From contig CAVTWJ010000014.1 in the NCBI GenBank assembly GCA_963738405.1, forward strand, positions 32,001 to 96,000: 64,000 nucleotides of DNA, given 5' to 3'. Below, one piece after another: positions 28,064 to 54,918 of this stretch. The notes beneath the pieces are model-generated. The model had not been told where the DNA came from. It did not search any database and was given only the letters and a program-made list of their open reading frames with translations. This DNA is from a candidate division FCPU426 bacterium. Its GTDB lineage: Bacteria; Oederibacteriota; Muellerivitia; Muellerivitales; Muellerivitaceae. The position numbers were made by a program, and so were the translations under genes. Position 1 is the stretch's first letter; each line of letters starts with the position of its first letter.

Positions 28064-29668
28064 TCAGGCCTCTTCCACAAAATATTCCTCAGGTTCGTTT
28101 CCATCCCAAACCCAATCCACCAACTTCTCCATTTCATCTACCCACATCTCATTCGCGATGGCCACATTGACCACCCGCTCAACGATCTTTTGGGTTTCTT
28201 CAAGGTCTTTGGAGAGCTTATCGAGGCGTTTCAACGGAATAGCTTGCCATTCCGTAAACCGATAGCCCCCGTTATCCGTCCTTCCCTCATGGCAGTTACG
28301 AATGCTTTCAATGATCGCGATTCTGGTGTCTTTATTCAGCAGTTTAAATGCCGGATATACTTCTTTCGCCAATACGGGATCCAATTCCAACTTGATCGCC
28401 TTTTCGGCCACGGTCCCCTTCGGATCAAGCCCTAAAAGCCTTTCCAAAGCCCAGTAACCTTCAATCCAGGTACTGCATTTGGTTAGCCGATCAAGTTCGT
28501 TGAGAACCTTTATGGCTTCCCAAACATCGATGGTGGGGAAAACTGCGGCTGCTATCGTCGGCCGACCCAGTCGTTTGGCCGCTTCAAGTACGAGCGGGTC
28601 GTCAAACACCTCGTAATCATGGGCAGGATCGGCCTCCTTTTCCTCCTCTGAGAGGGTTCGAACCAGGATCTCCCTTTCGTAACTAGTTGCCTGCATGGAA
28701 AGGACCTTCCGCTGAAGTTCTTCAGGGGTAAAGTCCTTGTAGGGAGTGTAGGGATTTACGCTGACACGCGAGGTGTCGATTCTTATGTGTTTAACTTGGT
28801 CATATTTCTTTATTCCAGGAACAAACCCCTTCGGGGCTTTACCCTTGGGTTCCTTGACTGTTTCGTAATCCTCCAGCCGATTCCCCTCCTTGACCCATTT
28901 GACCAACCCTTTGGCCTGGGCTTCGGTCATTTGCACCTTCCGGGCTAGGCTCAACGCCCTGGCGATGAGGTCCCGGTCTTCCGGGGAGGTTTTGGAGACC
29001 CCGTCCAGCCCCAGCATGGCGTAGGCGACTTTCTCTGGAAAATCCCACAAATTCGCATCTGTTATGCCTGGTTCATAAGGTGTTTCGTTTCTAAGGGTTT
29101 TTGGGGCATTCACGGGAACCCCATAAATGGCCTCTTTGGCCTTGTCATTCAAGAAATCCATCAGCCTTAGTATTCGGCTAACGGTTGTCTGGTCTATTCC
29201 TAGTTGGGCCGCTATCTTCTCCTGGCTAACGCCCGGTTGGAACCGTTGGATGTCCTCTATGCCTTGGTACCGGTCCAGCCAATGAGGGTTCTCTTCCTCG
29301 TTATCCATGAATGCTTCCAAAAGAATCTGGGCTGGCGTGAGGTCGTAATCCAGGGCATCCAGGGTCGCCCAACCGAGCCGCTGGGCCGCCTCAAGCCTTA
29401 AATGGCCGCCTACGACCCCATGCTCATAGGGGCAGACACCCCCTAGGTCTTTGGCGATCTCAGCCTTTTCGGCCTCGGAAAGGGTCCAGGTCTTGATGGG
29501 CGTTTTTTGGCCAATTGACCGCATGGAATTCATCTTGGCCTCGACAGCGCCGGGCTTTTTGAACTTGCGGGGGTTCTTGGGGTTGGGCCAGAGTTTCCCG
29601 ATGGGGATTCTCATGAACCGGGGGGTGGGACGGTTCTCAGATGGATTGGCAGACGTTTCAACGGACAT
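28064..29668 (-). CDS. ParB/Srx-domain protein with an internal tandem duplication
   Basis: PNPKNPRK, GGHLRLEAA and HTH SQEKIAAQLGIDQTTVSR; second homologous half; GGAGG RBS. Confidence 0.85.
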   Translation of the reverse strand: MSVETSANPSENRPTPRFMRIPIGKLWPNPKNPRKFKKPGAVEAKMNSMRSIGQKTPIKTWTLSEAEKAEIAKDLGGVCPYEHGVVGGHLRLEAAQRLGWATLDALDYDLTPAQILLEAFMDNEEENPHWLDRYQGIEDIQRFQPGVSQEKIAAQLGIDQTTVSRILRLMDFLNDKAKEAIYGVPVNAPKTLRNETPYEPGITDANLWDFPEKVAYAMLGLDGVSKTSPEDRDLIARALSLARKVQMTEAQAKGLVKWVKEGNRLEDYETVKEPKGKAPKGFVPGIKKYDQVKHIRIDTSRVSVNPYTPYKDFTPEELQRKVLSMQATSYEREILVRTLSEEEKEADPAHDYEVFDDPLVLEAAKRLGRPTIAAAVFPTIDVWEAIKVLNELDRLTKCSTWIEGYWALERLLGLDPKGTVAEKAIKLELDPVLAKEVYPAFKLLNKDTRIAIIESIRNCHEGRTDNGGYRFTEWQAIPLKRLDKLSKDLEETQKIVERVVNVAIANEMWVDEMEKLVDWVWDGNEPEEYFVEEA

Positions 29669-29798
29669 GAGGACACCTCCCAAATGAATTGAATGCTCCC
29701 CTTGTTTTGGGAATCGTAATTTTAGTTTTTATTCATTTCAAGAAAAAAGCGGGAGGTAGATCAGTTTCACAAGGACAGAAAAGCAACAGTTTTTTCGA

Positions 29799-30092
29799 TT
29801 AGGCGGGTTTGGCCAAGATAGGCTTCTTCTTGTGATGAATTTTCTGAGCTTGGGACAAATCATAATTCTTTTGGAGATTCAGCCACAGATCGGGAGTTGT
29901 TCCCAAAACATCCGCTAAGGAAAGGGCGGCTTCGGGGGTAACCCCCCTTCTCCCGTGGATAATTTCGTTCACCTTGGCATGTGACCACCCCAGGTGCAGA
30001 GCGAAAGCGTTTTGGGAAACGCCCATAGGTTTCAGGAAATCTTCGCTCAAAATTTCACCAGGATGGGTTGGGAGCTTCGATTTCGTTAACAT
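29799..30092 (-). CDS. higA: HigA-family addiction module antitoxin
   Basis: THPGEILSEDFL, VNEIIHGRRGVT, WLNLQ..YDL. Confidence 0.93.
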   Translation of the reverse strand: MLTKSKLPTHPGEILSEDFLKPMGVSQNAFALHLGWSHAKVNEIIHGRRGVTPEAALSLADVLGTTPDLWLNLQKNYDLSQAQKIHHKKKPILAKPA

Positions 30093-30133
30093 TTCGTTTT
30101 TCTCCAATAGAGAGACACTGCTTTCATTCCATT

Positions 30134-30565
30134 TCAAAGCCCTAACTTTTTAAGAAGCTGGGCCGTCGTGTACCATTCGACACCGGTTCCTTCAAAATCG
30201 CCGTCGTTGGACCATAGGGGTATTTCCAATTCTAAAGCCAAGGCCAATAAATCCACATCGTCGGGGTCTCTTTTTCCAATTTTCCGCCGGGCAATTGCCA
30301 ACGAACCCTGATATTCCCTTAAGTTAAATTCCCGGACAGCCAAAAGTTGAAACTGGCTTTCCAAAAGTTCCACGGCCATTTCATATTTCTCGGCCATGAC
30401 CGGAAGGTATTCCCGTACTTCTTTGATGTTTAAGGATGTTGAAACGACTTCGAGGGAGGATTGTTTAAAGACTTTAAGAGCGGCACGGCCTACGACAGCG
30501 GACAGAAGGACGTTAGCGTCCGCCGCGATTCGACCGGCGGCCTTTTCTCCATTTTTCAAAATCAT
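30134..30565 (-). CDS. PIN-domain toxin; start codon uncertain
   Basis: ADANVLLSA, RDPDDVDLLALA, LWSNDGDF. Confidence 0.9.
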   Translation of the reverse strand: MILKNGEKAAGRIAADANVLLSAVVGRAALKVFKQSSLEVVSTSLNIKEVREYLPVMAEKYEMAVELLESQFQLLAVREFNLREYQGSLAIARRKIGKRDPDDVDLLALALELEIPLWSNDGDFEGTGVEWYTTAQLLKKLGL

Positions 30566-35888: not shown

Positions 35889-36602
35889 ATGAAATGCCCC
35901 GAATGCGATTTGGAACAGCCGGAAAATACGGCCGTTTGCCCCAGCTGCGGTTTGAATTTCGCCATGTGGCGGGCCCATACCGGTGAACCTTTAACGCCGA
36001 CACCCATTCCGGAGGAAGAACCCGCCACTAGCGGGGAGGATAGGAGCCAGGCCGCATCCGAGGAGGAATCCCATCCCGAGGCCGAATCCAGCCCCGAAGA
36101 CCCCCCCGCGGAGGAGGTCCTCGACTCTTCTGCTAAACCCAAGGCTTTTAAATGGAGCCCTCTTTATTCCTTAGGCATCGGCCTATTGATCGCTTTGATA
36201 CTGGGAGTTTTCATTTTCTCCCGCCGCTCCCATAACCCCCTACCCAATCCCGCAAATGTGATCCCGGCCCCAACGGCACTATCCACTCCCGGCGATGCCA
36301 CCCCCATGAATTCGCTAATGGCCACCGGCACTCCAGGCCAAGCCGTGGATTCACCGACCCCTGAAAGCACCTCAACCCCCACTGAAATTCCTAAACCGAA
36401 AGAACCCACCGCCACCCCAGTTCCCCCGGTGGAATCTTCCTCATTGCCAAGCACTCCCACCGAAGCCCCATCACCTGTTCCAGCGGTTAATACGGCCGTA
36501 CCTGAGCCGGCAACCCCCACCCAAGCCTCCGGTCATAGCGACTTGCTTGAATCTTCGGGAGGACTCACCCTTTCCCTCCCGACCGCCATTCCAACCCCCT
36601 AG
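35889..36602 (+). CDS. Zinc-ribbon, single-TM protein with a Pro/Thr-rich tail
   Basis: CPEC..CPSC, acidic linker, one TM helix, PT-rich C-terminus. Confidence 0.75.
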   Translation: MKCPECDLEQPENTAVCPSCGLNFAMWRAHTGEPLTPTPIPEEEPATSGEDRSQAASEEESHPEAESSPEDPPAEEVLDSSAKPKAFKWSPLYSLGIGLLIALILGVFIFSRRSHNPLPNPANVIPAPTALSTPGDATPMNSLMATGTPGQAVDSPTPESTSTPTEIPKPKEPTATPVPPVESSSLPSTPTEAPSPVPAVNTAVPEPATPTQASGHSDLLESSGGLTLSLPTAIPTP

Positions 36603-38939: not shown

Positions 38940-39203
38940 TTACTCAAACTCAACAGTGGATAAGATCTCGACAAACTTACCCCGATCCGCCTTGGCCACG
39001 GACTTTCCCTGAGGAATGGCCGTCACTTTCAATTCGATTTCTCGCATGGGGAGTTTGACCCGGATCGTTTCCGCGCCCAGGAGTTCGTAGGAAGGCTTCA
39101 GGGGAGCTTGGTTTAAAAGAACCCAGCCCGCGTCGCAAAGATGCTTGGCGGCCATGCGGGTTTTAGTGATTCCCATCAGTTTCAGGTAAAGATCAACCCG
39201 CAT
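38940..39203 (-). CDS. S4-domain RNA-binding protein (Hsp15/YabO-like)
   Basis: MRVDLYLK..KTRMAAKHLCDAG..KPS. Confidence 0.88.
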   Translation of the reverse strand: MRVDLYLKLMGITKTRMAAKHLCDAGWVLLNQAPLKPSYELLGAETIRVKLPMREIELKVTAIPQGKSVAKADRGKFVEILSTVEFE

Positions 39204-39226: not shown

Positions 39227-41035
39227 TCAGTCGCCCTTATCCAGGTAAAAACGCAGGCCGAGGCCCACTTCAATGCCTGAATAGTCGATGGCGGCTTGGC
39301 TTCCGTCGGCGTTGAGGAGGGGCGAGGGAAAGTTAATCGCGCTTCCCGTGGTCACATTGGTCGCAAGGTTCGTAAAACGAAGGAACCGGTAGTCGAATCC
39401 CAGGTCGAATGATGTGGATTTGGAGCTATCGACGAAAAACTCGAAATCGGCGCCCGCTACCGCCCCGAAGCTGGAGCTGGAGGCGTCCATGTTTTCGGTG
39501 ACCCCTCCTCCTGCGACCGTAACGCCGGCCCCCGCGAGGAAATAATAACCGCCCGAGAGGGAAAGGTCGAAATTGGTTCCCTCATCCAGCGGAATAAGGA
39601 GCTTGGCGTGAAGGGCCGGGCCCAGCACCGCGCTGTTCCACATTTGGGTGACGCCCGCCTGCTCCACGTTTTCAACCGTCTTGCGTAAAAACTCGGCCTC
39701 CACACCGATTTGAATCGTCGGGTCCAGCGCCAAATCCGCGGCGAAATTAAACCCGAAGCCGAAGGGGAAACTTTGGTTGGAATTCACGCTCGAACCGTAA
39801 TAATCGCTCAAGTCGGTTGTGTTGTAATTGATCGCGTTGAATTTAGCCGTCAAGGTCCAGCTATCCGCGTCAGGCAAAGTGGGATATTCGGTCATGGGCG
39901 GCAGGTCCGAATCCTCTTCGGTGGAAGCCTCGGAGGCTACGGTGGCGGGAGAGCTTTCCCCGGCCGCGGGTAGGGCGGCGGTTTTAGACGCGGGAGTCGT
40001 CCCCGCAGTGGAAGGGGCGGCGGGAGAAGCCGGTTTGGGTTTAAACACGACCACCTTGCCGTCTTCCATAATGTAGGCCTTGGCTTTCAATTGATCGATC
40101 CACTGCTCAATAGCGTCCGACTGGCCGGTTTTTTGAAGATGTTCCTTGATACTGGAGGCCACGGAAGCGAAATCAGCCGGCCCCTTGGATTCCAGCCTCA
40201 CGACATAAATGCCCTCGGCGCCGTTGACGATTCCCAGGCCCTTGACCCTCATGGCGAAAATTCCATTGGCCAGTTCCGGATCCAAATCGGAACGGTAAAC
40301 GGTTCCGACTTCCCCGCCGTTATCCCGGGTGCCCGAATCCTCGGAGTATTTTTTCGCCTCGGACGCGAAATCCGCGCCCTTCTTCAAGTCGGCCAAAACC
40401 GCCTGGGCTTGTTTTTCGGCCCCGGCCCGTTTGGAGGCGGAGGCTTTCGAGTCCGCGTTGAAAAGAATGATGGAAAATTTGGCCTGTTCGTAATCTTGCG
40501 GGTGCTTTTGGTAGTAATCCGCGACCTGCTGGTCCGTGACCACGGCGGTGGAGGGAAGCTCTTCCTGTTTAAAATGAAGAACGCGTCCAGCCTTGATGCG
40601 CCGAAGCATTCTTTCACGCGTGTCTTCTTTCAGGTCGTCCAGGGTGATGCCTTCCTTGGTCAATCCCGCCTGGAATTCCTCGTCGGTGGCGAAGTTGCGC
40701 TTCATTCCCTCGATTTCCTGGTTCACCTGGGCTTCCACGTCGCTGTCGGAAATTTCCATTTTTTCACGGTCCGCTTCCTCGGCCAGAACCACTTCTTGAA
40801 TGAAATTATCCTCCACCTGCTTTTTGGCATCCAGATAGGCGGGGCTGCCGGCGGACGGGGTTTTATCCCCTTTGACCGCAAAAAAAGCGTCGATGGACTC
40901 TTCCAACTCGCCTTGGGTGAGGGAATCCTGGTCCACCACCAGCGTTATTTGATCCACCGTTTCCGCCATCACAAATCGCGGAAAAAACAATACCGTTCCC
41001 ATCGCCCAAAGACCTGCCCATATCCATTTATTCAT
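39227..41035 (-). CDS. SurA N-domain plus parvulin, fused to a C-terminal outer-membrane beta-barrel
   Basis: Signal peptide, ETVDQITLVVD SurA start, FASEAKKYSED..GG parvulin, Ala/Pro/Ser linker, eight amphipathic strands ending GLGLRFY. Confidence 0.85.
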   Translation of the reverse strand: MNKWIWAGLWAMGTVLFFPRFVMAETVDQITLVVDQDSLTQGELEESIDAFFAVKGDKTPSAGSPAYLDAKKQVEDNFIQEVVLAEEADREKMEISDSDVEAQVNQEIEGMKRNFATDEEFQAGLTKEGITLDDLKEDTRERMLRRIKAGRVLHFKQEELPSTAVVTDQQVADYYQKHPQDYEQAKFSIILFNADSKASASKRAGAEKQAQAVLADLKKGADFASEAKKYSEDSGTRDNGGEVGTVYRSDLDPELANGIFAMRVKGLGIVNGAEGIYVVRLESKGPADFASVASSIKEHLQKTGQSDAIEQWIDQLKAKAYIMEDGKVVVFKPKPASPAAPSTAGTTPASKTAALPAAGESSPATVASEASTEEDSDLPPMTEYPTLPDADSWTLTAKFNAINYNTTDLSDYYGSSVNSNQSFPFGFGFNFAADLALDPTIQIGVEAEFLRKTVENVEQAGVTQMWNSAVLGPALHAKLLIPLDEGTNFDLSLSGGYYFLAGAGVTVAGGGVTENMDASSSSFGAVAGADFEFFVDSSKSTSFDLGFDYRFLRFTNLATNVTTGSAINFPSPLLNADGSQAAIDYSGIEVGLGLRFYLDKGD

Positions 41036-42032
41036 CTCTTAAATCCTCCAGAGTGACCCCGACAATGGGGGCTAAGTCTTGATTCACCTTGATCACGGCA
41101 TTTTTTTTAAGTCCGGCCATCCACTGGTCGAACCTCATATCCTGCTCTTCTTTCATAAGAAAATCATGAATAAGGGGTGCCGCTTCGGCCAGGGTTCGCA
41201 TGCGCCTGGGGCGTTCCTCGATTCTTTGAAACAAATGGTAGCCAAATTCGTCCTTCACCGGTTTGGAAATCTCACCCGCTCCCAGAGCCGTTAAAACGGT
41301 CAGAAAAGCAGCGGGAAGGCGGTCGGTTTGCATCCAGCCCCAATCCCCTCCCTGGGACTTTTCAACCCCCTGGGAGAAGGTCGACGCCACCTTGGCGAAA
41401 TCTTCCCCGCGGCCCAAGCTCAACATGACCTTGTCCAGATCAGCCTTTTTCCTGACCACCAAATGCCGGGCCCGGATCGCGGCAGGGACCCAATAGGCGG
41501 AAAGATGAGACCAGTAATATTCCTCAACCTCGGGGTCCGTCACCTGCACCCGTGAATCCACTTCCTGGGTCACGATCTTCTGGGCCAGTTCTTCCTGGAG
41601 TACCTTGCGTTTCCAGGCTTCCTCGCTGACTCCCTGTGTCTTTAAGAGGGCCCTGTAGTCGTCCGGGATTTCCAGAAGGGCTTTTTGGAAAGCCTCATCC
41701 AGGTCTTTCTGGGTCATCTTCAGGCCCGTCCGCCGGGCCTCTTGCAGCAACAGCTTGCGGTTGATCACCTGTTCGAAAAGCCGGCGCTTGATGGCCCGCA
41801 TGTCGCCTTCGGTCACGGCGCTGTAATGAATTTCCATCAGGCGGAATTCGTTATCGAAAGTTTCCAGGGAGATGGGCTCGCCGTTAACGGTCACCAGGGT
41901 TTTTTCGGGCGGCACCTGGTCGGGTGTTAAATCGACCAGGGGTTCCTTTTGGCAACCGGCCAGAACCGCTAAAATTCCTGCGCTCCAAATCCAGATTCGG
42001 GCCCGGCTTGTCAGCTTTCGATCTTCGATCAT
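41028..42032 (-). CDS. SurA/PrsA-like peptidylprolyl isomerase, putative lipoprotein
   Basis: LAGC lipobox, VTVNGEPI, ARHLVV, GGDWGW, FGYHLF. Confidence 0.88.
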   Translation of the reverse strand: MIEDRKLTSRARIWIWSAGILAVLAGCQKEPLVDLTPDQVPPEKTLVTVNGEPISLETFDNEFRLMEIHYSAVTEGDMRAIKRRLFEQVINRKLLLQEARRTGLKMTQKDLDEAFQKALLEIPDDYRALLKTQGVSEEAWKRKVLQEELAQKIVTQEVDSRVQVTDPEVEEYYWSHLSAYWVPAAIRARHLVVRKKADLDKVMLSLGRGEDFAKVASTFSQGVEKSQGGDWGWMQTDRLPAAFLTVLTALGAGEISKPVKDEFGYHLFQRIEERPRRMRTLAEAAPLIHDFLMKEEQDMRFDQWMAGLKKNAVIKVNQDLAPIVGVTLEDLRDE

Positions 42033-42060
42033 TCCAGGCACCCGCAATCGGCCCTTGGGA

Positions 42061-42834
42061 CTAGGGCTTGCTATTCGGTTTTGACGCGGGAGAAGCCGAA
42101 GGGGGTTGGCCTAAGGCGCCTTGGTCTTGAAGTAAAGCGCTCGAGGTGGAGAGATTGGTGAGATATTTTTGGATCATATCCTCGTTTTTAACCACCTTGC
42201 TGTCACCCTGGAGCTGGTTCATCAACTTGTCCGCACGAACCCTCAAACGCACTTGATCCCGCACCTTATCGTAGGGCGGCGCCTTCTGCCCGTCTTGTTC
42301 CAATTGTTTGGAATACTTGGCGTAGCGGTCCTTGATCTCCGCCTCGGTCACCGTCACGGTATTAATCTTGCTCGCGGCGAAGGATTGGGCCAGCAGCATT
42401 TGCAGGTAAGAGTCTTTGTATGATTTTTCGAGTCGATTGACCGTTTCCATGTCCTGAACCAGACGGTCCTTGATGTCCTTGATTTGATTGCCCGCTTCCA
42501 GCAGTTTCGTTTTGGAAAGCTCATCAAACTGGGGATCGCTGTAGTGGGCGGCCCGGGCCGCTTCCAAAACCACTTCCTGGTCGATCAGGCTGTCCAATAC
42601 CTCACGCACCGCCTCCGCGTTGTTGGGATCCACGGGCTGGGGGGAGAATACACGCAAGAGGTCCATCTGGTGCATCCAATCGCCGAAGGTGATCTTTTGA
42701 TCCCCTACGGTCGCGACCACTTGGGAATCCGACAGCCCCGACTTGTTGGAGAATTTACTACAGGCCCAGCCGCTCAAAAAAAAGGTTAAGGCGGCGCCAA
42801 GAATAATAAAAAAACGCGCGAGTCGGGAAACCAT
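42061..42834 (-). CDS. SurA N-terminal-domain protein without parvulin, putative lipoprotein
   Basis: LSGWAC possible lipobox, VVATVGDQKIT, VLDSLIDQEVV, VTEAEIK. Confidence 0.75.
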   Translation of the reverse strand: MVSRLARFFIILGAALTFFLSGWACSKFSNKSGLSDSQVVATVGDQKITFGDWMHQMDLLRVFSPQPVDPNNAEAVREVLDSLIDQEVVLEAARAAHYSDPQFDELSKTKLLEAGNQIKDIKDRLVQDMETVNRLEKSYKDSYLQMLLAQSFAASKINTVTVTEAEIKDRYAKYSKQLEQDGQKAPPYDKVRDQVRLRVRADKLMNQLQGDSKVVKNEDMIQKYLTNLSTSSALLQDQGALGQPPSASPASKPNSKP

Positions 42835-43068: not shown

Positions 43069-43404
43069 TTATTCAGCGGTTTTAGGAGCGGCCGTCTTAA
43101 CCTTGATCTTCTTGTTCTTAACGCGGGCCCTTTTGGTCAGATCGGGTTGATCTTGATCGGGGGACAGCTTTAATGGATTTTCCGCCAGGTAATACTTTTT
43201 GGCGATTTTATCTTCCGCGCTGCGAAAGAGGATAAAAGCGAAGCGGTTTTCGATCTTGCTGATGATCCCAGGTCCCCATTCGGGCCTGACCGGCAATTGA
43301 ACTATTTTACCCAGGTCTTTTTCGTTGATTTGCACGACAGCCTTCCCTTCCACTGGTTGAATGATGTTAATAAGTGTCTGGCAAACTCTTTGTTTTTCAT
43401 CCAT
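43069..43404 (-). CDS. Small SH3-like protein (DUF3553-like)
   Basis: GKIV..RPEWGPGII pattern; basic tail. Confidence 0.6.
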   Translation of the reverse strand: MDEKQRVCQTLINIIQPVEGKAVVQINEKDLGKIVQLPVRPEWGPGIISKIENRFAFILFRSAEDKIAKKYYLAENPLKLSPDQDQPDLTKRARVKNKKIKVKTAAPKTAE

Positions 43405-43409
43405 CAAAT

Positions 43410-43471: not shown

Positions 43472-43672
43472 TTAGATCTTAACGACGTTCTCAGCTTTCA
43501 GGCCTTTGTCCCCGCGGGTGACCTCAAACTCAACGCGGTCCCCTTCGTTCAGCGACTTGTAACCCTCGCCTTGAATGGACGAATGGTGCACGAATACATC
43601 CTCGCCACCGTCCTGGGAAATAAAACCAAAACCTTTTTCGTTCTTAAACCACTTCACAGTACCTTGAACCAT
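43472..43672 (-). CDS. Cold-shock protein
   Basis: GTVKWF, KGFGFI (RNP1), DVFVH (RNP2). Confidence 0.97.
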
Positions 43673-43806
43673 TGCTTGAAACCTCAACCTTCTTTTATTT
43701 TTATTCATCCCGTCAAGCTTTAAGGGCCTGAAAGGAGATATCTACAGTACAGGAAAAAGCAAAAATAGGTGAAAAAATCGGTGAAAACAACTTGAAGAGG
43801 GCAAAA

Positions 43807-46800
43807 CTACCCCTTTTGTAGGTCTTTTAGAAGCCGCTCTACCGCCGCTAGACGTTGTTCCTGAGTCTCATCCCCCTTCGCAACCCTAAAGGAAACGGTG
43901 TTTGGATCCTGTGGGGAGAAGCGAATTCGGGAGGGTGGATACTGCTTGAACCATTTCTGGACCCGAGCGGGATCGGGTGAATGACTGGGATGCCATTGAA
44001 GGCTCACCCACCCGCCCTGGGCCTCCAGACGTTGAACGCCTAAGCCTTTGGTCAAGGGACGGAAGGAGGCCACGGTCAGGAGCATCTGTGCCTCCGGAGG
44101 GAGGGGGCCGAATCTATCTTTTAATTCCTCTTCAATCCCTGACAAACTCTCTCCCGCCTCGGCCAGCCGCCGGTAGAACTCGATCTTTAAACCTTCATCG
44201 GGAATATATTCCTTAGGGAAATAAGCCGTAACCCCCAGGGTGAGTTGAGGCGTAAAGTCGTCGGTAAAAGACTCGCCTTTCAAGTGGGCAACTTCCTGAC
44301 TGAGCATGCGGCTGTAAAGTTCAAAACCAATAGCTTCCATGTTGCCGTGCTGCTGGGTGCCCAACACGTTGCCCGCTCCCCGGATTTCCATGTCCTTCAT
44401 TGCGATGTGAAGCCCTGACCCCAGGGAAGAAAATTCCTGTAAGACTTCCAGCCGCTTTTGGGCTAATTCTTTCAGGGTCATGTGGCGGGGATAAAAAAAG
44501 TAAGCGTAAGCCTGACGATCGGTGCGGCCCACCCGGCCCTTCAACTGGTAGAGTTGTGAAAGACCCATGTGATCCGCCCGTTCCACGATCAGGGTATTCA
44601 CGTTGGGCATGTCGAGCCCTGATTCGATGATGGAGGTACAGACCAAGACGTCGTATTCCCGGTCGATGAAATCCATCATGATGGATTCTAGCTCATGTTC
44701 CTGAAGCTGGCCGTGGGCCACGGCAAGTTTGGCCTCGGGCACCACCGCATGGAGATGGTCGGCGATGCGCTCAATATCTTTCACGTGGTTGTGCACGTAA
44801 AAAACCTGGCCCTCCCGGTTGATCTCCCTACGGATGGCTTCCCCCAAAAGCTTGTCGTCCATTGGCGCCACTTGGCTCAAGACCGACATTCGGTTGCGAG
44901 GCGGGGTATCAATCACTGAGATTTCCCGGATTCCAGAAAGGGACATGTGCAAAGTGCGGGGGATAGGCGTGGCGGTCAGGGTCAGCACGTCCACATCTTT
45001 CTTTATGCTTTTCATCTTCTCTTTCTGCGCCACCCCAAAGCGGTGTTCTTCATCAATAACGAGCAAACCCAAATTGGGCAACTTCACATCTTTCATGATG
45101 AGCCGGTGGGTGCCGATGAGGATATCGATCTCGCCTTCTCGGGCCTTATCGAGGGTTTCCTTAATTTCCTTGGGCGAGCGAAATCGAGAAAGCAGGGCAA
45201 TCTTAACCGGATAGTCCGCCATGCGATCCTTGAAGGTGTTGAAATGCTGCTGGGCCAGGATGGTCGTGGGAACAAGCACCGCCACCTGTCTTTTATCCTG
45301 CACCGCTTTGAAGGCCGCCCGCATGGCCACTTCGGTTTTGCCGTAGCCCACGTCGCCGCAAACGAGGCGATCCATGACCCGGTCCGACTCCATGTCCTTT
45401 TTCACATCCACCACGGCCTGGTACTGGCCCGGCGTGAGGGTGTAGAGGAAGGCGTCCTCGAATTCATTCTGCCAGGGGCTGTCCACCGAAAAGGGTTGTT
45501 TGCGCATGGCCTGACGGGTGGAGTAGAGGGCCATCAGTTCCCGGGCCACCGCCTCGATTTCTTTTTTAATCTTGGTCTTGGTACGGCTCCACTGCTCTCC
45601 GCCCAGCTTGGAAAGAACAGGAGAACCTTCGCTTCCTATATAGCGCTGGATGAGTCCGATCTGGTCCGTGGGAAGATATATCTTTTCGTTATCGGCAAAT
45701 TCAAGCTGAATGTAATCGCGTGTCACTTCATCGATGGTGAGGGGGGTCAATCCTCGATAAAGGCAGATGCCGCAGTCCAGATGGACCGCCCAATCGCCCA
45801 GGGATAATTCGTTTAAAGAAGAAAGCGCCTTTCCCCCCGAAACGGTGCGGATGCGCCGATGCCGTCGCCCCCGGTAGCGGCGGAAAAGATCATGATCAGG
45901 AAGAACTTTCAGCCCAATTCCATCCAGAGAAAAGCCCTGTTCCACCTCTCCCAAGGCCAGAAAAAGGGAGGGAGTCCCCTTGGGGTCAATCTTCTCTTCC
46001 CTCAACAACTCCGAAAGCCTTTCCCTTTCCCCCCGGTTATGACACCACAAAACCACCCGCTCGTTACCCGCAATCCACTTCTTAAGATCGTTGATGAAAG
46101 CCCCGAACTTTCCGTAATAGGGATTGAGGCTTCGGGCTTGAAAAGAAAATTCAAAATCAGGCTTTTCCCCTATTAAATCCTGAACGATCTGACCAATGGC
46201 GAAGGCCTTTCCACTTTCAAGGGCCTTTTGAACCGATCGGAGATCGTTGAATAGATGGCGGGCGGGAAAGAGGTCCGATTTTTCCTCACGAGCCTGGCGG
46301 TCGCAGGCGTCGAGCTTGTCTGAAAGCTCCTCATATTTGCGCTCCAGGGCCAGGGGCTCGAGGAGGAGAAGCCGGCTCTTATCCGGCAGGTAATCCAGAA
46401 GGCATTGACGTTCGGGAAGTGCCCCCACCGCCTGCCATTCCCAACCGGGGAAGGTTCGGGTTTGGGTGAAAAGCTCAAGGGCTGAAGTGGCCCAACGGGA
46501 TTCTTCCTTCATCTTTTCCCGAAGGGCAGCTTTTAAATTCTGGCTGGTTTCCGCTTTGACCACCACCTCATGGGCGGGAAATACGTAGACTTCTGATATA
46601 TCCCCCCCGGAGCGCTGGTTGAGGATATTGAGGGGACGAACCGAGACCAGGGTCTCGCCAAAAAACTCGAGCCGGACAGGCCCCGAAGGTGAACCGGGTG
46701 AAGCCAAGTCTAAAATACCGCCCCGCATGGCGAACTGGCCCAATTCCACCACCTGGGTGACCGACTCGTACCCTAAGGCCACCAGTCTTTCCTTTAAATC

Positions 46801-47295
46801 AGATGGAGCGTCCTGATCCTTTCTTAAAACCAGAACCTGGTCCAGCCATTCCGAGGCCGGAAGGGTCTGCTGGAGGGCGCCCTGCAGGGTGGTAATGATG
46901 ACGCAGGCTCCTCCCTGCAGAAGCTGGTAAAAACACCTTTGGCGCTCGCCGATAAGCTCCGGGTCGGGGGTTTCCACGTCCTGCGGCATGATTTCCCAGG
47001 AAGGACAAAGCAGGATGGGAATATCCGGCATCCAGCTAAAAAGGTCATCCTGTAGGCCGAGCGCCTCATCCCGAGTGGGGGTCATGATCAGCCAGGGCTG
47101 GTCTTCCTGGAGATGTTGGTAAAACCACGCCACTAGGAAGGCCTTAGACGACCCGGGTATGCCCTGAAGGAGGGTGCGGGGTTTCATAGACTTCAGAGCG
47201 GCAAGCGATTGCTCCGCCTCAGGCCAATCCAGCTTGGCTAAAACCAGCGGGGAGGTTGGGGTCAAGGGGTTCGGTTTGGAATCGGTTTCCGGCAT
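43807..47295 (-). CDS. mfd: Transcription-repair coupling factor
   Basis: UvrB-like N-terminus, CarD/RID domain, GDVGYGKT, DEEH, TATPIPRTL, TRCF C-terminus. Confidence 0.98.
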   Translation of the reverse strand: MPETDSKPNPLTPTSPLVLAKLDWPEAEQSLAALKSMKPRTLLQGIPGSSKAFLVAWFYQHLQEDQPWLIMTPTRDEALGLQDDLFSWMPDIPILLCPSWEIMPQDVETPDPELIGERQRCFYQLLQGGACVIITTLQGALQQTLPASEWLDQVLVLRKDQDAPSDLKERLVALGYESVTQVVELGQFAMRGGILDLASPGSPSGPVRLEFFGETLVSVRPLNILNQRSGGDISEVYVFPAHEVVVKAETSQNLKAALREKMKEESRWATSALELFTQTRTFPGWEWQAVGALPERQCLLDYLPDKSRLLLLEPLALERKYEELSDKLDACDRQAREEKSDLFPARHLFNDLRSVQKALESGKAFAIGQIVQDLIGEKPDFEFSFQARSLNPYYGKFGAFINDLKKWIAGNERVVLWCHNRGERERLSELLREEKIDPKGTPSLFLALGEVEQGFSLDGIGLKVLPDHDLFRRYRGRRHRRIRTVSGGKALSSLNELSLGDWAVHLDCGICLYRGLTPLTIDEVTRDYIQLEFADNEKIYLPTDQIGLIQRYIGSEGSPVLSKLGGEQWSRTKTKIKKEIEAVARELMALYSTRQAMRKQPFSVDSPWQNEFEDAFLYTLTPGQYQAVVDVKKDMESDRVMDRLVCGDVGYGKTEVAMRAAFKAVQDKRQVAVLVPTTILAQQHFNTFKDRMADYPVKIALLSRFRSPKEIKETLDKAREGEIDILIGTHRLIMKDVKLPNLGLLVIDEEHRFGVAQKEKMKSIKKDVDVLTLTATPIPRTLHMSLSGIREISVIDTPPRNRMSVLSQVAPMDDKLLGEAIRREINREGQVFYVHNHVKDIERIADHLHAVVPEAKLAVAHGQLQEHELESIMMDFIDREYDVLVCTSIIESGLDMPNVNTLIVERADHMGLSQLYQLKGRVGRTDRQAYAYFFYPRHMTLKELAQKRLEVLQEFSSLGSGLHIAMKDMEIRGAGNVLGTQQHGNMEAIGFELYSRMLSQEVAHLKGESFTDDFTPQLTLGVTAYFPKEYIPDEGLKIEFYRRLAEAGESLSGIEEELKDRFGPLPPEAQMLLTVASFRPLTKGLGVQRLEAQGGWVSLQWHPSHSPDPARVQKWFKQYPPSRIRFSPQDPNTVSFRVAKGDETQEQRLAAVERLLKDLQKG

Positions 47296-50717: not shown

Positions 50718-51050
50718 TTATGAGCGAACCCGGGAAAGGCTTTCCCGGACCCATTTGGAATAAGCGGTGGAAACCTTTTGAGTCGGCAGGGCTAAAATCT
50801 CACAAACGCTGTAGGGATGGTGCGCCCTCACCCATTTTTCCAGGCCAGGCCATTTCGAAGGCATTGTCTTTACGATAAGCATCTCTTCTTGTGCGGTTTC
50901 AATCTTTCCCTTCCACCAATATCGGCTAGCTAATCCAGGAATCCGGTTAACACAGGCGGCCCATCTTCCCTTCAAAAGCCCCAAAGAAAGTTGCTCACTG
51001 GTTTTCCGATCCGGTGTAGTAATAAAAACGATTAAAACGGTTCGACTCAT
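50718..51050 (-). CDS. cutA: CutA family protein
   Basis: AACVN, SRYWWKG, HPYSVCEI. Confidence 0.93.
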   Translation of the reverse strand: MSRTVLIVFITTPDRKTSEQLSLGLLKGRWAACVNRIPGLASRYWWKGKIETAQEEMLIVKTMPSKWPGLEKWVRAHHPYSVCEILALPTQKVSTAYSKWVRESLSRVRS

Positions 51051-52285
51051 GAATCCACGCCTCGATTTGGAATCAAATCAAATCTCTTTTCCCCATCGCT
51101 GGCGCGGGTCACTCGAACCTCGGAAACCGCTGGAGCCGTTTGGCCTGTGCGGCCCTCCCCAGGCAAGGCGTAAACTCTAGCGCCATCAGCCACCTCTACC
51201 ATCTCCGCCAGTCTGTTTTTAGAAAGTATTTCCAATCTGCGGCCAATGGAAATCGCGTCCAGCCCCATGAAGGCCTGAAGATCCGTGTTGGAAGCCATCG
51301 TCCGGCCCGCCTTAGCGAGGAAATAAAGAAGCTTCTTGCATACCAAATCAAGCTTCAAATGCTCGTTGACCGCCTCGAATAGATCTTGATACTCGACCCT
51401 TAGGCCCCGCCTTTGGCTTCCCCTCATCATGGCTTCGGAGATGAGATAAAGAAACCGCCTCGGGTTGCCTGCTGAGATGGCCAGGGCCAAGGTGAGGGCT
51501 TCGGGTTCGAGAAAAGCGTCCAACGAACCCTTGAAGCTGGCCTTTTGAAGGCGAAGTTCAAGAAGCTGTCTTAACTCGCTTGAGGTGAATTTTTCCACTA
51601 GTACCATGTGTCGGAAAAGCCCCAGCACTGTGGGCTCGGCGCCTTCTTTTACAACTTGGGCTACTTTGGCGTAAAACTCTTCCTGCAAGGCAACGACAAA
51701 ACTGATTCGGGGAAGCTCCAAGAGAGACTTTAACTCTTCCAAAAGCTGCAAGGTTCTCTCCGAACGCGTAAGGTGCTGGATTCGATCCCCTTTGATTTTT
51801 TCCAAATCATCCACGAATACGATAAGAGGCTTTCTGAGCCGGACGGTTATGGTTTTAACCACTAGAAAAACCCCGTTTTTGCTCAAGTCCCCCTTTTCCA
51901 AACGACTTTCAACGTCTTTCAATAAGAGGCCCTTGGGGCGCGGCAAGACCACCAGCATTTCACGGAGCAGTTCACCTAAAAAATAAGAAGCATCGTCAAG
52001 CGGCACTCCGATGGCGAGACTGTGGAAATCTTTAGGAACTCGACTTTGAAGAATCTTCAAGAGACTGCTTTTTCCCACCCCTGGTTCTCCAGCAACCCCC
52101 GCGTTGGCCTGGGAGAGCATGGCCGAGGTTAATCGCTCGAGAATCTCTTCGCGGCCTATGAAATAATTTAGATTGTGGTCCCGAAGGGAAAGGGTCGTGA
52201 AGGGATCGTACTTTAATCCAAACTGACGGTAGGCGGCACCTGCGGTTTTGATAACGGAATTTTTGGAGCGGTTCTTTTTTTTCAT
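51047..52285 (-). CDS. AAA+ ATPase with a C-terminal winged-helix-like region
   Basis: FGLKYDPF, FIGRE, GEPGVGKS, VFVDDLEK, GNPR. Confidence 0.85.
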   Translation of the reverse strand: MKKKNRSKNSVIKTAGAAYRQFGLKYDPFTTLSLRDHNLNYFIGREEILERLTSAMLSQANAGVAGEPGVGKSSLLKILQSRVPKDFHSLAIGVPLDDASYFLGELLREMLVVLPRPKGLLLKDVESRLEKGDLSKNGVFLVVKTITVRLRKPLIVFVDDLEKIKGDRIQHLTRSERTLQLLEELKSLLELPRISFVVALQEEFYAKVAQVVKEGAEPTVLGLFRHMVLVEKFTSSELRQLLELRLQKASFKGSLDAFLEPEALTLALAISAGNPRRFLYLISEAMMRGSQRRGLRVEYQDLFEAVNEHLKLDLVCKKLLYFLAKAGRTMASNTDLQAFMGLDAISIGRRLEILSKNRLAEMVEVADGARVYALPGEGRTGQTAPAVSEVRVTRASDGEKRFDLIPNRGVDS

Positions 52286-52342
52286 GGTTCCCAGGCTTCT
52301 TTGGAAAAACCCGCTCCTACTTAAGAAAAGCGGAGAAAGATT

Positions 52343-53380
52343 TTATCGGCTCATCGTCAATCGCTCACCGTTCACCAGATAGGGCGTAATCAATCCGGTT
52401 TTCCCTTTGATCTGAACCGCTGGAAGGGCGGTCATATCAAAATAATCATGGCAGACATCCGCCATTTCATCGTTGACCAAAACCTGGCCATGCTTGGCGA
52501 TACCGCAAAGACGGGAGGCCAAATTAACCGTATCACCGATCAACGTGAATTCCATGCGGTTGGCGGAGCCCAGATTACCCACAATGGCCGTTCCGGCGGT
52601 AATGCCAACCCCCAGCCCTATTTCCACCGGCTTGCTGTAGGAGACTTTAAAAGCCTTGTTGAGCATTTCGAACCGGTCCTGCATTTGCAAGGCGGTGCGT
52701 AAAACCATTTTGGAAGCATCTCCCTCGTTTCCATAGGGCCGACGGAAATAGGCAAAGATGGCATCCCCAATGTACTTGTTGATGTCTCCGCCGTTTTGGG
52801 TGATGACTTCCTGCATGGCGGTAAACATTTTATTGAGAATTTCGACCGTTTCCTCGGGCTTCAACATTTCGGTCATCCGGGTGAAACTTCGCAAGTCCGA
52901 AAAGAGAACGTAAACCCTGCGGAGTTCGCCGCCCAATTCGGCGCGGGCGGCCTTGGAGGCCGCCTGGGTTGAAACGCTCGATCCCACGTATTTTTCCAGG
53001 GTCTGCTGCGTTTCTTTCGCCTTGTCCGCCAGGGTCCGGTATTCGGACGCGGCGGTACGGATAATAAGCCTTTGATTTTCTCCTAGGGTCCAGGGAAGAA
53101 AATTTTTCACCCTTTCATATTTAAAGGGAAGTATTTGATTTTCCAAAAACGACGTTTGAAGATCGGCCATGAGGGCGGCCTTGTCAGTCCATGTGACGAT
53201 TCCCCACCAAAGAAGAAGCAAAATTCCAGCCCCGATTGAAATCCACTCCACTTCCACGGGATTGTCCAAAAATTGGGAAGCGACGACCCCCGTCAATACC
53301 GTCAATAGGATAAGTAGGCCTAAAAGGCCGAAAAAACGGTTAATGTGGGATAAAAATTTTATGAGGACGGACGGCAACAC
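52343..53380 (-). CDS. Class III adenylate cyclase with 2 TM helices; start approximate
   Basis: LFSDLRSFT, NKYIGDA, FTLIGDTVNLASRL, IKGK. Confidence 0.92.
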   Translation of the reverse strand: MLPSVLIKFLSHINRFFGLLGLLILLTVLTGVVASQFLDNPVEVEWISIGAGILLLLWWGIVTWTDKAALMADLQTSFLENQILPFKYERVKNFLPWTLGENQRLIIRTAASEYRTLADKAKETQQTLEKYVGSSVSTQAASKAARAELGGELRRVYVLFSDLRSFTRMTEMLKPEETVEILNKMFTAMQEVITQNGGDINKYIGDAIFAYFRRPYGNEGDASKMVLRTALQMQDRFEMLNKAFKVSYSKPVEIGLGVGITAGTAIVGNLGSANRMEFTLIGDTVNLASRLCGIAKHGQVLVNDEMADVCHDYFDMTALPAVQIKGKTGLITPYLVNGERLTMSR

Positions 53381-53487
53381 GGTAAAACCTTTGAAAAATA
53401 GGATGAAAGGGATTCGGCTTGAGGGCAGTTTATCGCAAAAGGAAAAGGAAAAACATATGCAAAAAGCGGTGTTTTGATTGCACAAAT

Positions 53488-54918
53488 CTAAACTTGTGTC
53501 AAATCCTTGCCCGCCAAGCGGAGTTTTTCTAAACCTTCGGGGGTTCGGGCCTCCACGTAGCAACGCATGAGCGGTTCGGTACCCGAAAAGCGAACCATCA
53601 ACCATTCTCCGCCGTCCAAGAGAAACTTCACCCCGTCCTTACGGACGATATCAATGACTTTCTTTCCGGCCAGGTCGGTAGGTGGGTTGTCTTTAAGTTT
53701 TGCGGTCATCACTTCTTTCAAACCGTCCTTCAATTTGATGTTGAGCCGATCCGAATAAAAAGCGCCGTATTGCTGGTGAAGTCCCTTTAGAATCGCGGTC
53801 AGAGTCTTGCCTTCTTGGGCAACGACCTCTGCCATTAAAAGGTTCGCAAGTATCCCGTCTTTTTCAGGCACATGTCCGTGAACCGTCAGCCCGCCCGATT
53901 CCTCCCCGCCGATAATGATGGATTCTTGGGACATGATTTCCGCGATGTACTTGAACCCGACGGGCGTTTCTTTTAACTCCACGTTGTTGGCCTTCGCGAT
54001 GGCGTCCATCAAACTGGTAGTGGCGACCGTCCTCACCACACACCCCTTCCAATCGCGTGTCTTCAAAAGGTGGGCGAAAAGAATGGGCAAGACCTGATTA
54101 GGCGTTATAAAAGTTCCATCGGCATCAATTACCCCAAAACGGTCCGCGTCGCCATCGTTGGCGAGTCCCAGATGTGCTGGTAGGGTTTTGACCAAGTTGA
54201 TGGCTTCCTGCAGTTCTTCTTCGCCCGGTTCGGGGTGGTGCCCCGCCCCCCCAAAAAAGGGATCACGGGTATTGTGCATCACCTTGACGTTGACACCCGC
54301 TTCCTGAAGCAAGCTGTCCATATAGCCCAATCCATTGCCATGCATCAGGTCCACCACGATTTTCAGACGAGCCTTACGCAAGGTGTCCATTTGAACTAAT
54401 TGGCGGATCCGCTCAAAGTAGGCGGGCTTGGGATCAATAGGGACCACCAACCCCTTGGATTCGGCCTCGGAATAACTCAGTTCTGGAACCTTGCCTCCCT
54501 GCGTGCCGATGCTTTCTGCCAAGGCTTCCAATTCCAGGGTGACCTGCACGGGTGCCGGACCCCCGTCGGAGCCATTGAACTTGAGCCCCTGATAGGCCGC
54601 GGGATTGTGGCTAGCGGTAAAATTAATGGAACCCGCCGTTTTTCGCCGAACCAGTTCGTAAGAAACCGTCGGGGTGGGGGTGCCTACCGGGCATACGAAG
54701 GAAGTGATCCCGTATCCCGCCAAAACCTTAATCGTTAGCTGTATGAATTCTTCGGTCAGGAAACGATAGTCCCCCGCCACCACCACGCCTTTGGAAGCCT
54801 CACCCGTTTTTTGAAGGTGTTGGGCAATAGCCGCCACCGCAATCTTGACGTTAGCGAAAGTAAAATCTTCCGCAAGGATGGCGCGCCAACCAGAGGTGCC
54901 AAAAGTTATTTTTGCCAT
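53488..54918 (-). CDS. Phosphoglucomutase/phosphomannomutase
   Basis: FGTSGWR, TASHNP, DGDADR, GEESG, RFSGTEP. Confidence 0.95.
   Translation of the reverse strand: MAKITFGTSGWRAILAEDFTFANVKIAVAAIAQHLQKTGEASKGVVVAGDYRFLTEEFIQLTIKVLAGYGITSFVCPVGTPTPTVSYELVRRKTAGSINFTASHNPAAYQGLKFNGSDGGPAPVQVTLELEALAESIGTQGGKVPELSYSEAESKGLVVPIDPKPAYFERIRQLVQMDTLRKARLKIVVDLMHGNGLGYMDSLLQEAGVNVKVMHNTRDPFFGGAGHHPEPGEEELQEAINLVKTLPAHLGLANDGDADRFGVIDADGTFITPNQVLPILFAHLLKTRDWKGCVVRTVATTSLMDAIAKANNVELKETPVGFKYIAEIMSQESIIIGGEESGGLTVHGHVPEKDGILANLLMAEVVAQEGKTLTAILKGLHQQYGAFYSDRLNIKLKDGLKEVMTAKLKDNPPTDLAGKKVIDIVRKDGVKFLLDGGEWLMVRFSGTEPLMRCYVEARTPEGLEKLRLAGKDLTQV

Follow-up and report, generated by a model that had tools for sequence, protein, structure and literature searches.

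The 64-kb window analysed here, by which we mean the whole stretch of 64,000 nucleotides from contig CAVTWJ010000014.1 of a candidate division FCPU426 bacterium, carries on its minus strand (39227..42834) three consecutive genes of the SurA/PrsA family, which we name g1, g2 and g3. We favour, with moderate confidence, the view that they encode a lineage-conserved set of three membrane-tethered SurA/PrsA-family chaperones, among which g3 would be a SurA leashed to the outer membrane and serving the β-barrel assembly machinery (BAM). This view has its computed basis in the structure of the genes, the domains of their products, the predicted folds and anchoring signals, and in conservation and synteny, and from them we infer the insertion of a barrel in the outer membrane, its periplasmic orientation, the clients, the membrane to which g1 and g2 belong and any hand-over between the proteins. 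A preliminary description of this DNA had placed three consecutive and differently anchored SurA paralogues at this locus; the three genes were found there, all on the minus strand, and their signals support a probable lipoprotein (g1), a clear lipoprotein (g2) and a barrel fusion (g3). Each product has a Pfam match to a SurA-like N-domain, and judging from their sequences all three would work like chaperones of the SurA/PrsA/PpiD family.

A SurA module on a predicted barrel

The product of g3 (39227..41035, 602 residues) is predicted to be a fusion of SurA with a barrel. It starts with a signal peptide of the signal peptidase I type, read from the sequence (residues 1-24, MNKWIW...FVMA/E, 40964..41035), of which an equivalent is found at the N-terminus of 38 aligned homologues, and continues with a SurA module (residues 25-330, 40046..40963) made of an N domain, a parvulin and a C-terminal helix with strands. 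The Pfam matches over residues 27-289 are SurA_N (E 4.2e-08) and, for the parvulin, Rotamase_3 (E 8.5e-17), and the SurA-like N-terminal domain is matched by Pfam in all 38 homologues. In the AlphaFold2 model built from the alignment of 38 sequences (mean pLDDT, for predicted local distance difference test, of 81.8; predicted template-modelling score, pTM, of 0.42), the SurA-like module, roughly residues 27-330, mostly reaches a pLDDT of 85-97, and a Foldseek search of the PDB with this N-terminal part returned SurA (9hg5_F, E 4.4e-13), 2pv3_A, which is SurA without its second parvulin, the leptospiral protein LIC12922 and PrsA.

Two His plus an Asp or Cys of the parvulin pocket are the residues that peptidyl-prolyl isomerase (PPIase) activity requires. 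At the two His positions g3 has Ile189 and Tyr277, and none of the 38 sequences has a His at either one, the first being Ile, Met or Val and the second an invariant Tyr, while Asp233 is kept in 36 of them. The pocket set is incomplete in both parvulins of the trio, g3 having the Asp without the His and g2 the His without the Asp. The barrel-fused SurA with a degenerate parvulin that had been proposed for g3 is borne out, by the barrel predicted with AlphaFold2 and Foldseek on the one hand and by the lack of His in 38 sequences on the other.

The SurA module is followed by an Ala/Ser/Thr/Pro-rich linker (residues 331-383, 39887..40045) which is predicted to be disordered, with pLDDT values below 50 at residues 337-381. 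The linker counts about 54 residues in g3 and 38-67 in the family (median 53.5), with Ala, Ser, Thr and Pro accounting for 59% of it over reference residues 330-383. Beyond it, AlphaFold2 and Foldseek place an OmpA-like β-barrel of eight strands (residues 384-602, 219 residues, 39230..39886): residues 393-598 are modelled as an all-β domain of eight long strands with pLDDT mostly of 80-97, which closes in the model into an antiparallel barrel. The best Foldseek matches of this C-terminal part are the OmpA transmembrane domain (target TM-score, TMt, 0.72 for 1bxw, 0.72 for 9fzc_A and 0.79 for 1qjp), OmpW (0.61) and OprG (0.60). PF13505 (OMP_b-brl) is matched by 9 of the 38 orthologues, the best at E 3.2e-07, and the look-alikes of residues 384-602 in the ESM Atlas are clusters named outer-membrane protein (OMP) β-barrel, with scores of 0.96-0.97; queried at full length, g3 retrieved from the same atlas a generic PPIase cluster only. 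The last strand ends ...GLRFYL and is followed by 2-19 polar residues; the aromatic is not the final residue, and conservation reaches 90% or more at Arg595 and Phe596. The consensus of the β-signal for insertion by BAM is a C-terminal strand ending in an aromatic residue.

The fusion is a property of the family. Searched against 5.8 billion protein clusters, g3 matched 63, from which the alignment of 38 sequences derives, and about 55 of the matched clusters are full-length proteins of 580-632 residues that are 38-81% identical across the whole protein, C-terminus included. Five candidates for unfused forms were set aside. Three apparently barrel-less entries (P0038, P0057 and P0060) run into Arg/Pro-rich sequence just behind the YPTLP motif and look like assembly frameshifts, and two others (P0051 and P0058) both end within the barrel.

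When the strand number of a barrel is even, its two termini both lie in the periplasm, so the SurA module would hang beneath the outer membrane on its flexible leash of 38-67 residues. From there it may bind outer-membrane proteins that are still unfolded and offer them to BAM, while the leash keeps it from diffusing off; that the chaperone is thereby concentrated locally beside BAM appears to us the most economical reading of this architecture. The conserved motifs of the barrel domain stand mostly at the predicted periplasmic end (YPTLP before strand 1, PLDExTNF in turn 2, EFFLD in turn 3 and RFYLDK at the end), and the mean identity of the long strands is 0.57-0.77 in their periplasm-proximal halves versus 0.45-0.64 in the distal ones; a docking surface at the periplasmic end of the barrel would fit such a pattern.

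Signal peptide, passenger, linker and C-terminal barrel follow one another in g3 in an order that resembles type V secretion, one of the 38 orthologues has a weak Autotransporter beta-domain match (E 0.0052), and the loop between strands 1 and 2, predicted to face outward, is well conserved (mean identity 0.66). One might thus see in g3 an autotransporter-like or surface protein that displays its SurA passenger outside, or a mainly structural envelope protein. We consider this very improbable: the barrel has about eight strands and its best folds are OmpA, OmpW and OprG, not the 12-stranded domains of autotransporters; the linker is predicted to be disordered, in place of the helix that would run through the pore of an autotransporter; the passenger comes from a periplasmic chaperone family and is encoded beside two lipoprotein paralogues; and it is the periplasm-proximal strand halves and the periplasmic turns that are more conserved.

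The barrel also occurs apart from SurA. A profile made from the barrels of the window and of five related loci was searched against 1.84 billion representatives and matched 112 proteins at E<=1e-3, 23 of them at E<=1e-30. Among the matches are stand-alone barrel proteins of about 230-270 residues, several of which match PF13505, and 12 of the 43 matches that were scanned combine N-terminal tetratricopeptide repeats (TPR) with a C-terminal barrel in about 336-495 residues; a further match, P0126, has its TPR on the C-terminal side of the barrel. These stand-alone and TPR-fused forms lead us to regard the barrel as a reusable anchor by which periplasmic interaction modules are held at the membrane. 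The TPR-plus-barrel proteins may represent another type of periplasmic assembly factor anchored through a barrel, which might hint at a wider habit of anchoring such factors by barrels and not by lipids. Proteins combining TPR and barrel are P0071-P0076, P0084, P0088-P0090, P0094, P0095, P0099 and P0126, some with weak TPR_Slam matches. No second copy of the barrel was found in the window.

Two paralogues with a probable and a clear lipoprotein signal

The first gene, g1 (42061..42834, 257 residues), encodes a SurA core made of the N and C domains. Its only Pfam matches are SurA_N_3 (E 8.2e-11) and SurA_N_2 (E 4.3e-09), no parvulin being detected by Pfam, and its AlphaFold2 model (pLDDT 76.7, pTM 0.67) consists of the core alone, a helical body with a small β-sheet formed by the N and C parts. 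The best Foldseek matches of the model are the SurA core chains of BAM-SurA cryo-electron microscopy entries (9hg9_F, E 3.7e-4; 8pzv_F, TMt 0.61). The start of g1 is the same in a database copy (P0171) and lies 6 nt 3' of a Shine-Dalgarno sequence, AAGGAG. The signal peptide covers residues 1-24 and ends ...SGWA/C, the codon of Cys25 starting at 42762; this Cys is invariant in the 25 aligned relatives, which follow the pattern [A/S/T]-G-[W/L]-[A/S]-C and have Ala, Ser or Gly at position -1 of the lipobox in 25 of 25 cases. Because its signal peptide ends in an invariant Cys, we take g1 to be a probable, not a certain, lipoprotein. The claim that g1 contains the chaperone domain only therefore stands by Pfam and by fold, and its lipoprotein nature is retained as probable, the Cys found in 25/25 speaking for it and a non-canonical lipobox against it.

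The second gene, g2 (41028..42047, 339 residues), encodes a PrsA/PpiD-like lipoprotein, as indicated by Pfam, NCBIfam and matches to PDB sequences, with a SurA-like N domain (SurA_N_3, E 7.9e-12), a parvulin (Rotamase, E 4.6e-15) and a C-terminal helix. Among PDB sequences it matches SurA (E 3.9e-23), PrsA of B. subtilis (4wo7, E 2.9e-19) and also HP0175. The lipobox consensus is [LVI][ASTVI][GAS]C; that of g2 reads LAGC, with the codon of Cys32 starting at 41954, and those of its orthologues LAGC, LSGC, VMGC or PIGC, and of the 92 family members whose sequence extends over this column 91 have the Cys, all of which marks g2 as a predicted lipoprotein. Its parvulin has the motifs ARHL and GYHL, and both His occur in all 108 family sequences. 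At residue 227, where the second parvulin (P2) of E. coli SurA has Asp, g2 has Gly, and the 108 family members have Gly (76), Ala (10), Asp (8), Thr (7), Glu (5) or Ser (2); with Gly at this position PPIase activity cannot be assumed. The "intact-looking" parvulin lipoprotein of the preliminary description is hence confirmed for LAGC and for both His, and has to be amended for the pocket Asp.

Only about 12-18 residues separate the Cys from the first strand in g1 and in g2. By analogy with PrsA and PpiD, the two proteins, held on such short lipid tethers, would most likely act close to the membrane, as holdases or foldases of chains that have just been exported.

The stop of g2 and the start of g3 overlap by 8 bp, as had been claimed and as the sequence confirms (ATGAATAA). 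At this junction (41028..41049) a GGAGGA (41049-41044) precedes by 8 nt the ATG of g3 at 41035, and six of six cases, L001-L005 of the related loci introduced below among them, offer a start codon that overlaps the stop of g2 by 8-11 bp. Spaced as they are, g2 and g3 appear from the sequence to be translationally coupled.

Conservation of the trio and its membrane arrangement

One scan of species-representative genomes yielded six true orthologous loci (L001-L006), including a Candidatus Firestonebacteria metagenome-assembled genome (MAG; L003) and an uncultured proteobacterium (L004), the other 74 loci being distant PPIases. Conservation of the three genes together had been put forward as a check on the idea that they form one system, and the order mfd-g1-g2-g3 is indeed kept in all five related loci with upstream DNA, at identities of 46-50% for g1, 61-66% for g2 and 45-50% for g3. 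The mfd copies upstream in L001-L005 are 70-73% identical and lie about 150-640 bp from g1 in L001-L004, with a 2.4-kb gap in L005; an S4-domain gene comes after g3 in all five loci with downstream DNA (L001 and L003-L006). Furthermore, 25 of 59 g3 clusters could be paired by hand with a g2 cluster through the identical size of the longest contig, which is a proxy of co-occurrence only.

The link between mfd and a PPIase gene downstream, also claimed at the outset, was recovered well beyond these loci. A match to mfd of more than 300 residues lies upstream in 11 of the 74 distant-PPIase loci (16 of 80 overall), the match in L061 being weak (21% identity). In two loci of Elusimicrobia (L009) and Elusimicrobiaceae (L044), mfd is followed by a lipoprotein and secreted SurA-like pair, the two genes overlapping in L009; in an unrelated uncultured bacterium (L043, 8206-11836, plus strand) it is followed by two paralogues with Cys-ended N-termini and a canonical secreted SurA with two parvulins; and in two Actinomycetota MAGs (L007 and L015) by a single PrsA-type lipoprotein. 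The gene of C. difficile PrsA2 likewise lies directly downstream of mfd (PMC6288519). No barrel was found in the mfd-linked loci L007, L009, L015, L043 and L044 or in C. difficile PrsA2. As lipoprotein and secreted SurA-like genes follow mfd elsewhere without a barrel, the trio is best seen as a lineage-specific elaboration of an old and widespread neighbourhood, which itself looks like conserved synteny and not like a functional operon of mfd with the chaperones. On the side of L043, the paralogues all contain a parvulin, one being a 484-residue lipoprotein without detected SurA_N and another a 293-residue protein with an N-terminus ending in Cys, and the locus has the appearance of a parallel trio without barrel; in the Actinomycetota loci, MazG-like and enolase-like frames, judged by eye from their N-termini, follow the PrsA-like gene.

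These relatives bear on how the three proteins may be arranged. A tethered relay had been suggested in the preliminary description; in such a chain the inner membrane would anchor g1 and g2 and the outer membrane g3, and the three would contact each other and pass clients hand to hand without a diffusing carrier. An extended chain measures about 0.35 nm per residue, which gives roughly 19 nm for a leash of 54 residues, and a linker of 38-67 residues with an elongated SurA module could thus reach some 15-25 nm, comparable to the width of the periplasm. The three distinct anchors, their strict co-conservation and the coupling of g2 with g3 also speak for a relay, and in E. coli an inner-membrane-anchored SurA-like protein has already been proposed to pass clients to SurA (PMC9797188). 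Against it, the residue at position +2 after the Cys gives no inner-membrane placement, being Asn in 12, Ser in 8, Asp in 3 and Gly in 2 of the 25 g1 sequences, and Gln, Gly, Thr, Phe, Ser and Thr across six loci for g2, and in model diderms the outer membrane is the destination of most lipoproteins. Moreover, where lipoprotein and secreted SurA follow each other in this order in Elusimicrobia and in L043, the last member is of the ordinary soluble kind, so that the gene cluster itself implies no tethered chain. We hold the relay to be unlikely. Rather unlikely too is the stronger proposal that the diffusing SurA has been replaced by an outer-membrane-leashed one which, with two lipid-anchored paralogues in the inner membrane, would form an obligate and fully tethered route for OMPs.

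Conversely, g1 and g2 could be sorted by Lol to the outer membrane and make there, with the barrel-held g3, a platform resembling BAM accessory proteins, without any bridge to the inner membrane. This would agree with the lack of a consistent residue of the inner-membrane retention type at +2, with the shortness of the g1 and g2 tethers and with the co-conservation of both genes with an outer-membrane-anchored g3. Actinomycetota typically have no outer membrane of the Gram-negative type, yet in the two Actinomycetota MAGs mfd is followed by a lipoprotein of the g2 kind, and the ancestral site of this protein is therefore probably the cytoplasmic membrane. The PrsA proteins, which are the closest characterised lipoprotein relatives, also act at the cytoplasmic membrane (PMC6288519). 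A gathering of all three proteins on the outer membrane is in our opinion quite unlikely.

We thus return to three membrane-tethered chaperones with g3 as an outer-membrane-leashed SurA, and several observations have to be weighed against this preferred reading. The last ~270 residues of g3 match no Pfam model; even at E<=10 the barrel segment of the window itself finds nothing in Pfam, nor does its sequence find a meaningful match in the PDB, and the barrel call consequently rests on the predicted structure, on the orthologues and on the profile search. The alternation of hydrophobic and polar residues in eight of eight strands (Kyte-Doolittle differences of 2.0-5.0 in the mean of 38 sequences), which speaks for the barrel, was obtained without a shuffled control. 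The pTM of 0.42 means that the model does not define the relative placement of the g3 domains, as is expected of domains that sit on a flexible linker. The lipobox of g1 is non-canonical, position -3 being Gly in 24 of 25 relatives and position -2 Trp in 14 of 25, and by its sequence the site fits signal peptidase I as well, cleavage by which could make g1 soluble. Finally, we built a maximum-likelihood tree of SurA modules from 21 rows (the window, L001-L005 and 10 SurA-like open reading frames, ORFs, from six other mfd-linked loci), in which g1 was left out because it has no parvulin. The g2 and g3 clades each receive a support of 100/100, and the branches leading to the rows of L043 are long; with 13 of its 18 inner branches unresolved, this tree neither shows nor rejects that g3 is an orthologue of the secreted SurA-like genes found in other phyla.

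Around the trio in the window, the conserved neighbour 3' of g3 encodes an S4-domain protein of 87 residues (38940..39203, minus strand, Pfam S4) which is probably not part of the chaperone function. Upstream lies mfd (43807..47295, minus strand, identified by Pfam), and between mfd and g1 are a cold-shock protein gene (43472..43708) and an ORF of 112 residues without family match (43069..43407), both also on the minus strand. The 112-residue ORF has no match in any of the loci examined. Terminator-like hairpins follow the cold-shock gene (43450-43412) and the 112-residue ORF (43034-43017), and to judge by such signals g1-g2-g3 are probably transcribed apart from mfd in this window. A scan for sigma-70 promoters found nothing upstream of g1, its counts being no higher than in shuffled sequences. 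Neither BamA, Skp and Lol genes nor further SurA-like genes were found among the 60 ORFs scanned in the window.

Farther away, a PIN-domain protein (30134..30565, minus strand) overlaps a helix-turn-helix protein (29799..30137, minus strand) in what resembles a toxin-antitoxin pair, adjoined by a 539-residue protein with a weak ParB_N match (28064..29683, minus strand). A 237-residue protein at 35889-36602 (plus strand) combines a zinc-ribbon-like N-terminus (Cys-x2-Cys ... Cys-x2-Cys), one hydrophobic segment and a long Pro/Thr/Ser-rich tail, and has no Pfam match. At 51047-53605 (minus strand) a STAND-type NTPase (nSTAND1/AAA_16) adjoins a protein with an adenylate/guanylate cyclase domain, and genes for CutA1, a histidine kinase and a response regulator lie downstream of these two.

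Comparison with known systems

How OMPs cross the periplasm is debated between a soluble SurA shuttle and supercomplexes that bridge Sec and BAM. If the model of g3 is right, a natural SurA, conserved and covalently fixed to the outer membrane, would mean that at least one lineage has no need for free SurA diffusion. In this respect g3 can be regarded as nature's own tethering experiment, which offers a handle on whether an outer-membrane-anchored SurA supports OMP assembly, on the length of leash that is required and on feeding by lipid-anchored paralogues. It also adds a domain architecture, chaperone plus small barrel anchor, whose anchor is common to the TPR-plus-barrel family.

E. coli SurA (1m5y; BAM-SurA 9hg5, 8pz1) shares the architecture of N-domain, parvulin and C-helix with g2 and g3, and the N+C core with g1. 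It is soluble and has two parvulins, whereas g3 has a single His-less parvulin and a membrane barrel, and g2 and probably g1 have lipoprotein signals. As in SurA, it is probably the chaperone core rather than PPIase chemistry that matters in the trio. None of the three proteins passes a curated equivalog cut-off, and g2 and g3, each with one parvulin and a membrane anchor, are not SurA in the strict sense: against the NCBIfam SurA equivalog PRK10770, g3 scores 41.3 bits and g2 63 bits for a cut-off of 394.

PpiD of E. coli, together with YfgM, offers the functional model for g1, g2 and the relay idea, in that it is a membrane-anchored protein of the SurA family. It is anchored in the inner membrane at SecYEG, has an inactive parvulin, and is proposed to take over clients and pass them on to SurA (PMC9797188). 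PpiD has an N-terminal transmembrane helix and about 620 residues, whereas g1 and g2 would be anchored by lipids, and g2 reaches 59.7 bits against the PpiD model NF008054 for a cut-off of 493; no YfgM-like partner was seen adjoining the trio. The PrsA proteins of Firmicutes (B. subtilis 4wo7, C. difficile PrsA2) share with g2 the same build of lipoprotein signal, N domain, parvulin and C domain and the same neighbour, mfd. Unlike PrsA, g2 has two paralogous partners and comes from an organism in which an OMP-type barrel is encoded as well, and at the Asp/Cys position of its parvulin the 76 of 108 family members mentioned above have Gly; its score against the PrsA equivalog is 74.8 for a cut-off of 361.

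In the open-access literature, as far as it was searched, neither a natural fusion of SurA with a barrel nor this trio was found described. The "undescribed system" announced by the preliminary description is in this sense upheld for the barrel-anchored SurA and has to be narrowed for the rest, the gene neighbourhood being known and the concept of hand-over not being new, since a passage from PpiD to SurA and then BAM has already been proposed for E. coli. The new part is the barrel-anchored SurA, through which the last chaperone would be physically held at the outer membrane, and in second place a g1 that lacks the parvulin.

Two comparisons help to place this new part. Like g3, OmpA joins a small eight-stranded barrel, a flexible linker and a periplasmic domain; the order is reversed in g3, where the periplasmic module is N-terminal and is a chaperone instead of a peptidoglycan-binding domain. 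Closest in layout are the engineered SurA-OmpX and SurA-EspP fusions (PDB 8qpv and 8qp5), which were made as traps of the hand-over to BAM and consist, like g3, of one chain with SurA first and a small barrel next. In these laboratory constructs the barrel is the client, whereas g3 stands for a natural family, conserved across about 55 clusters, whose barrel presumably serves as a permanent anchor.

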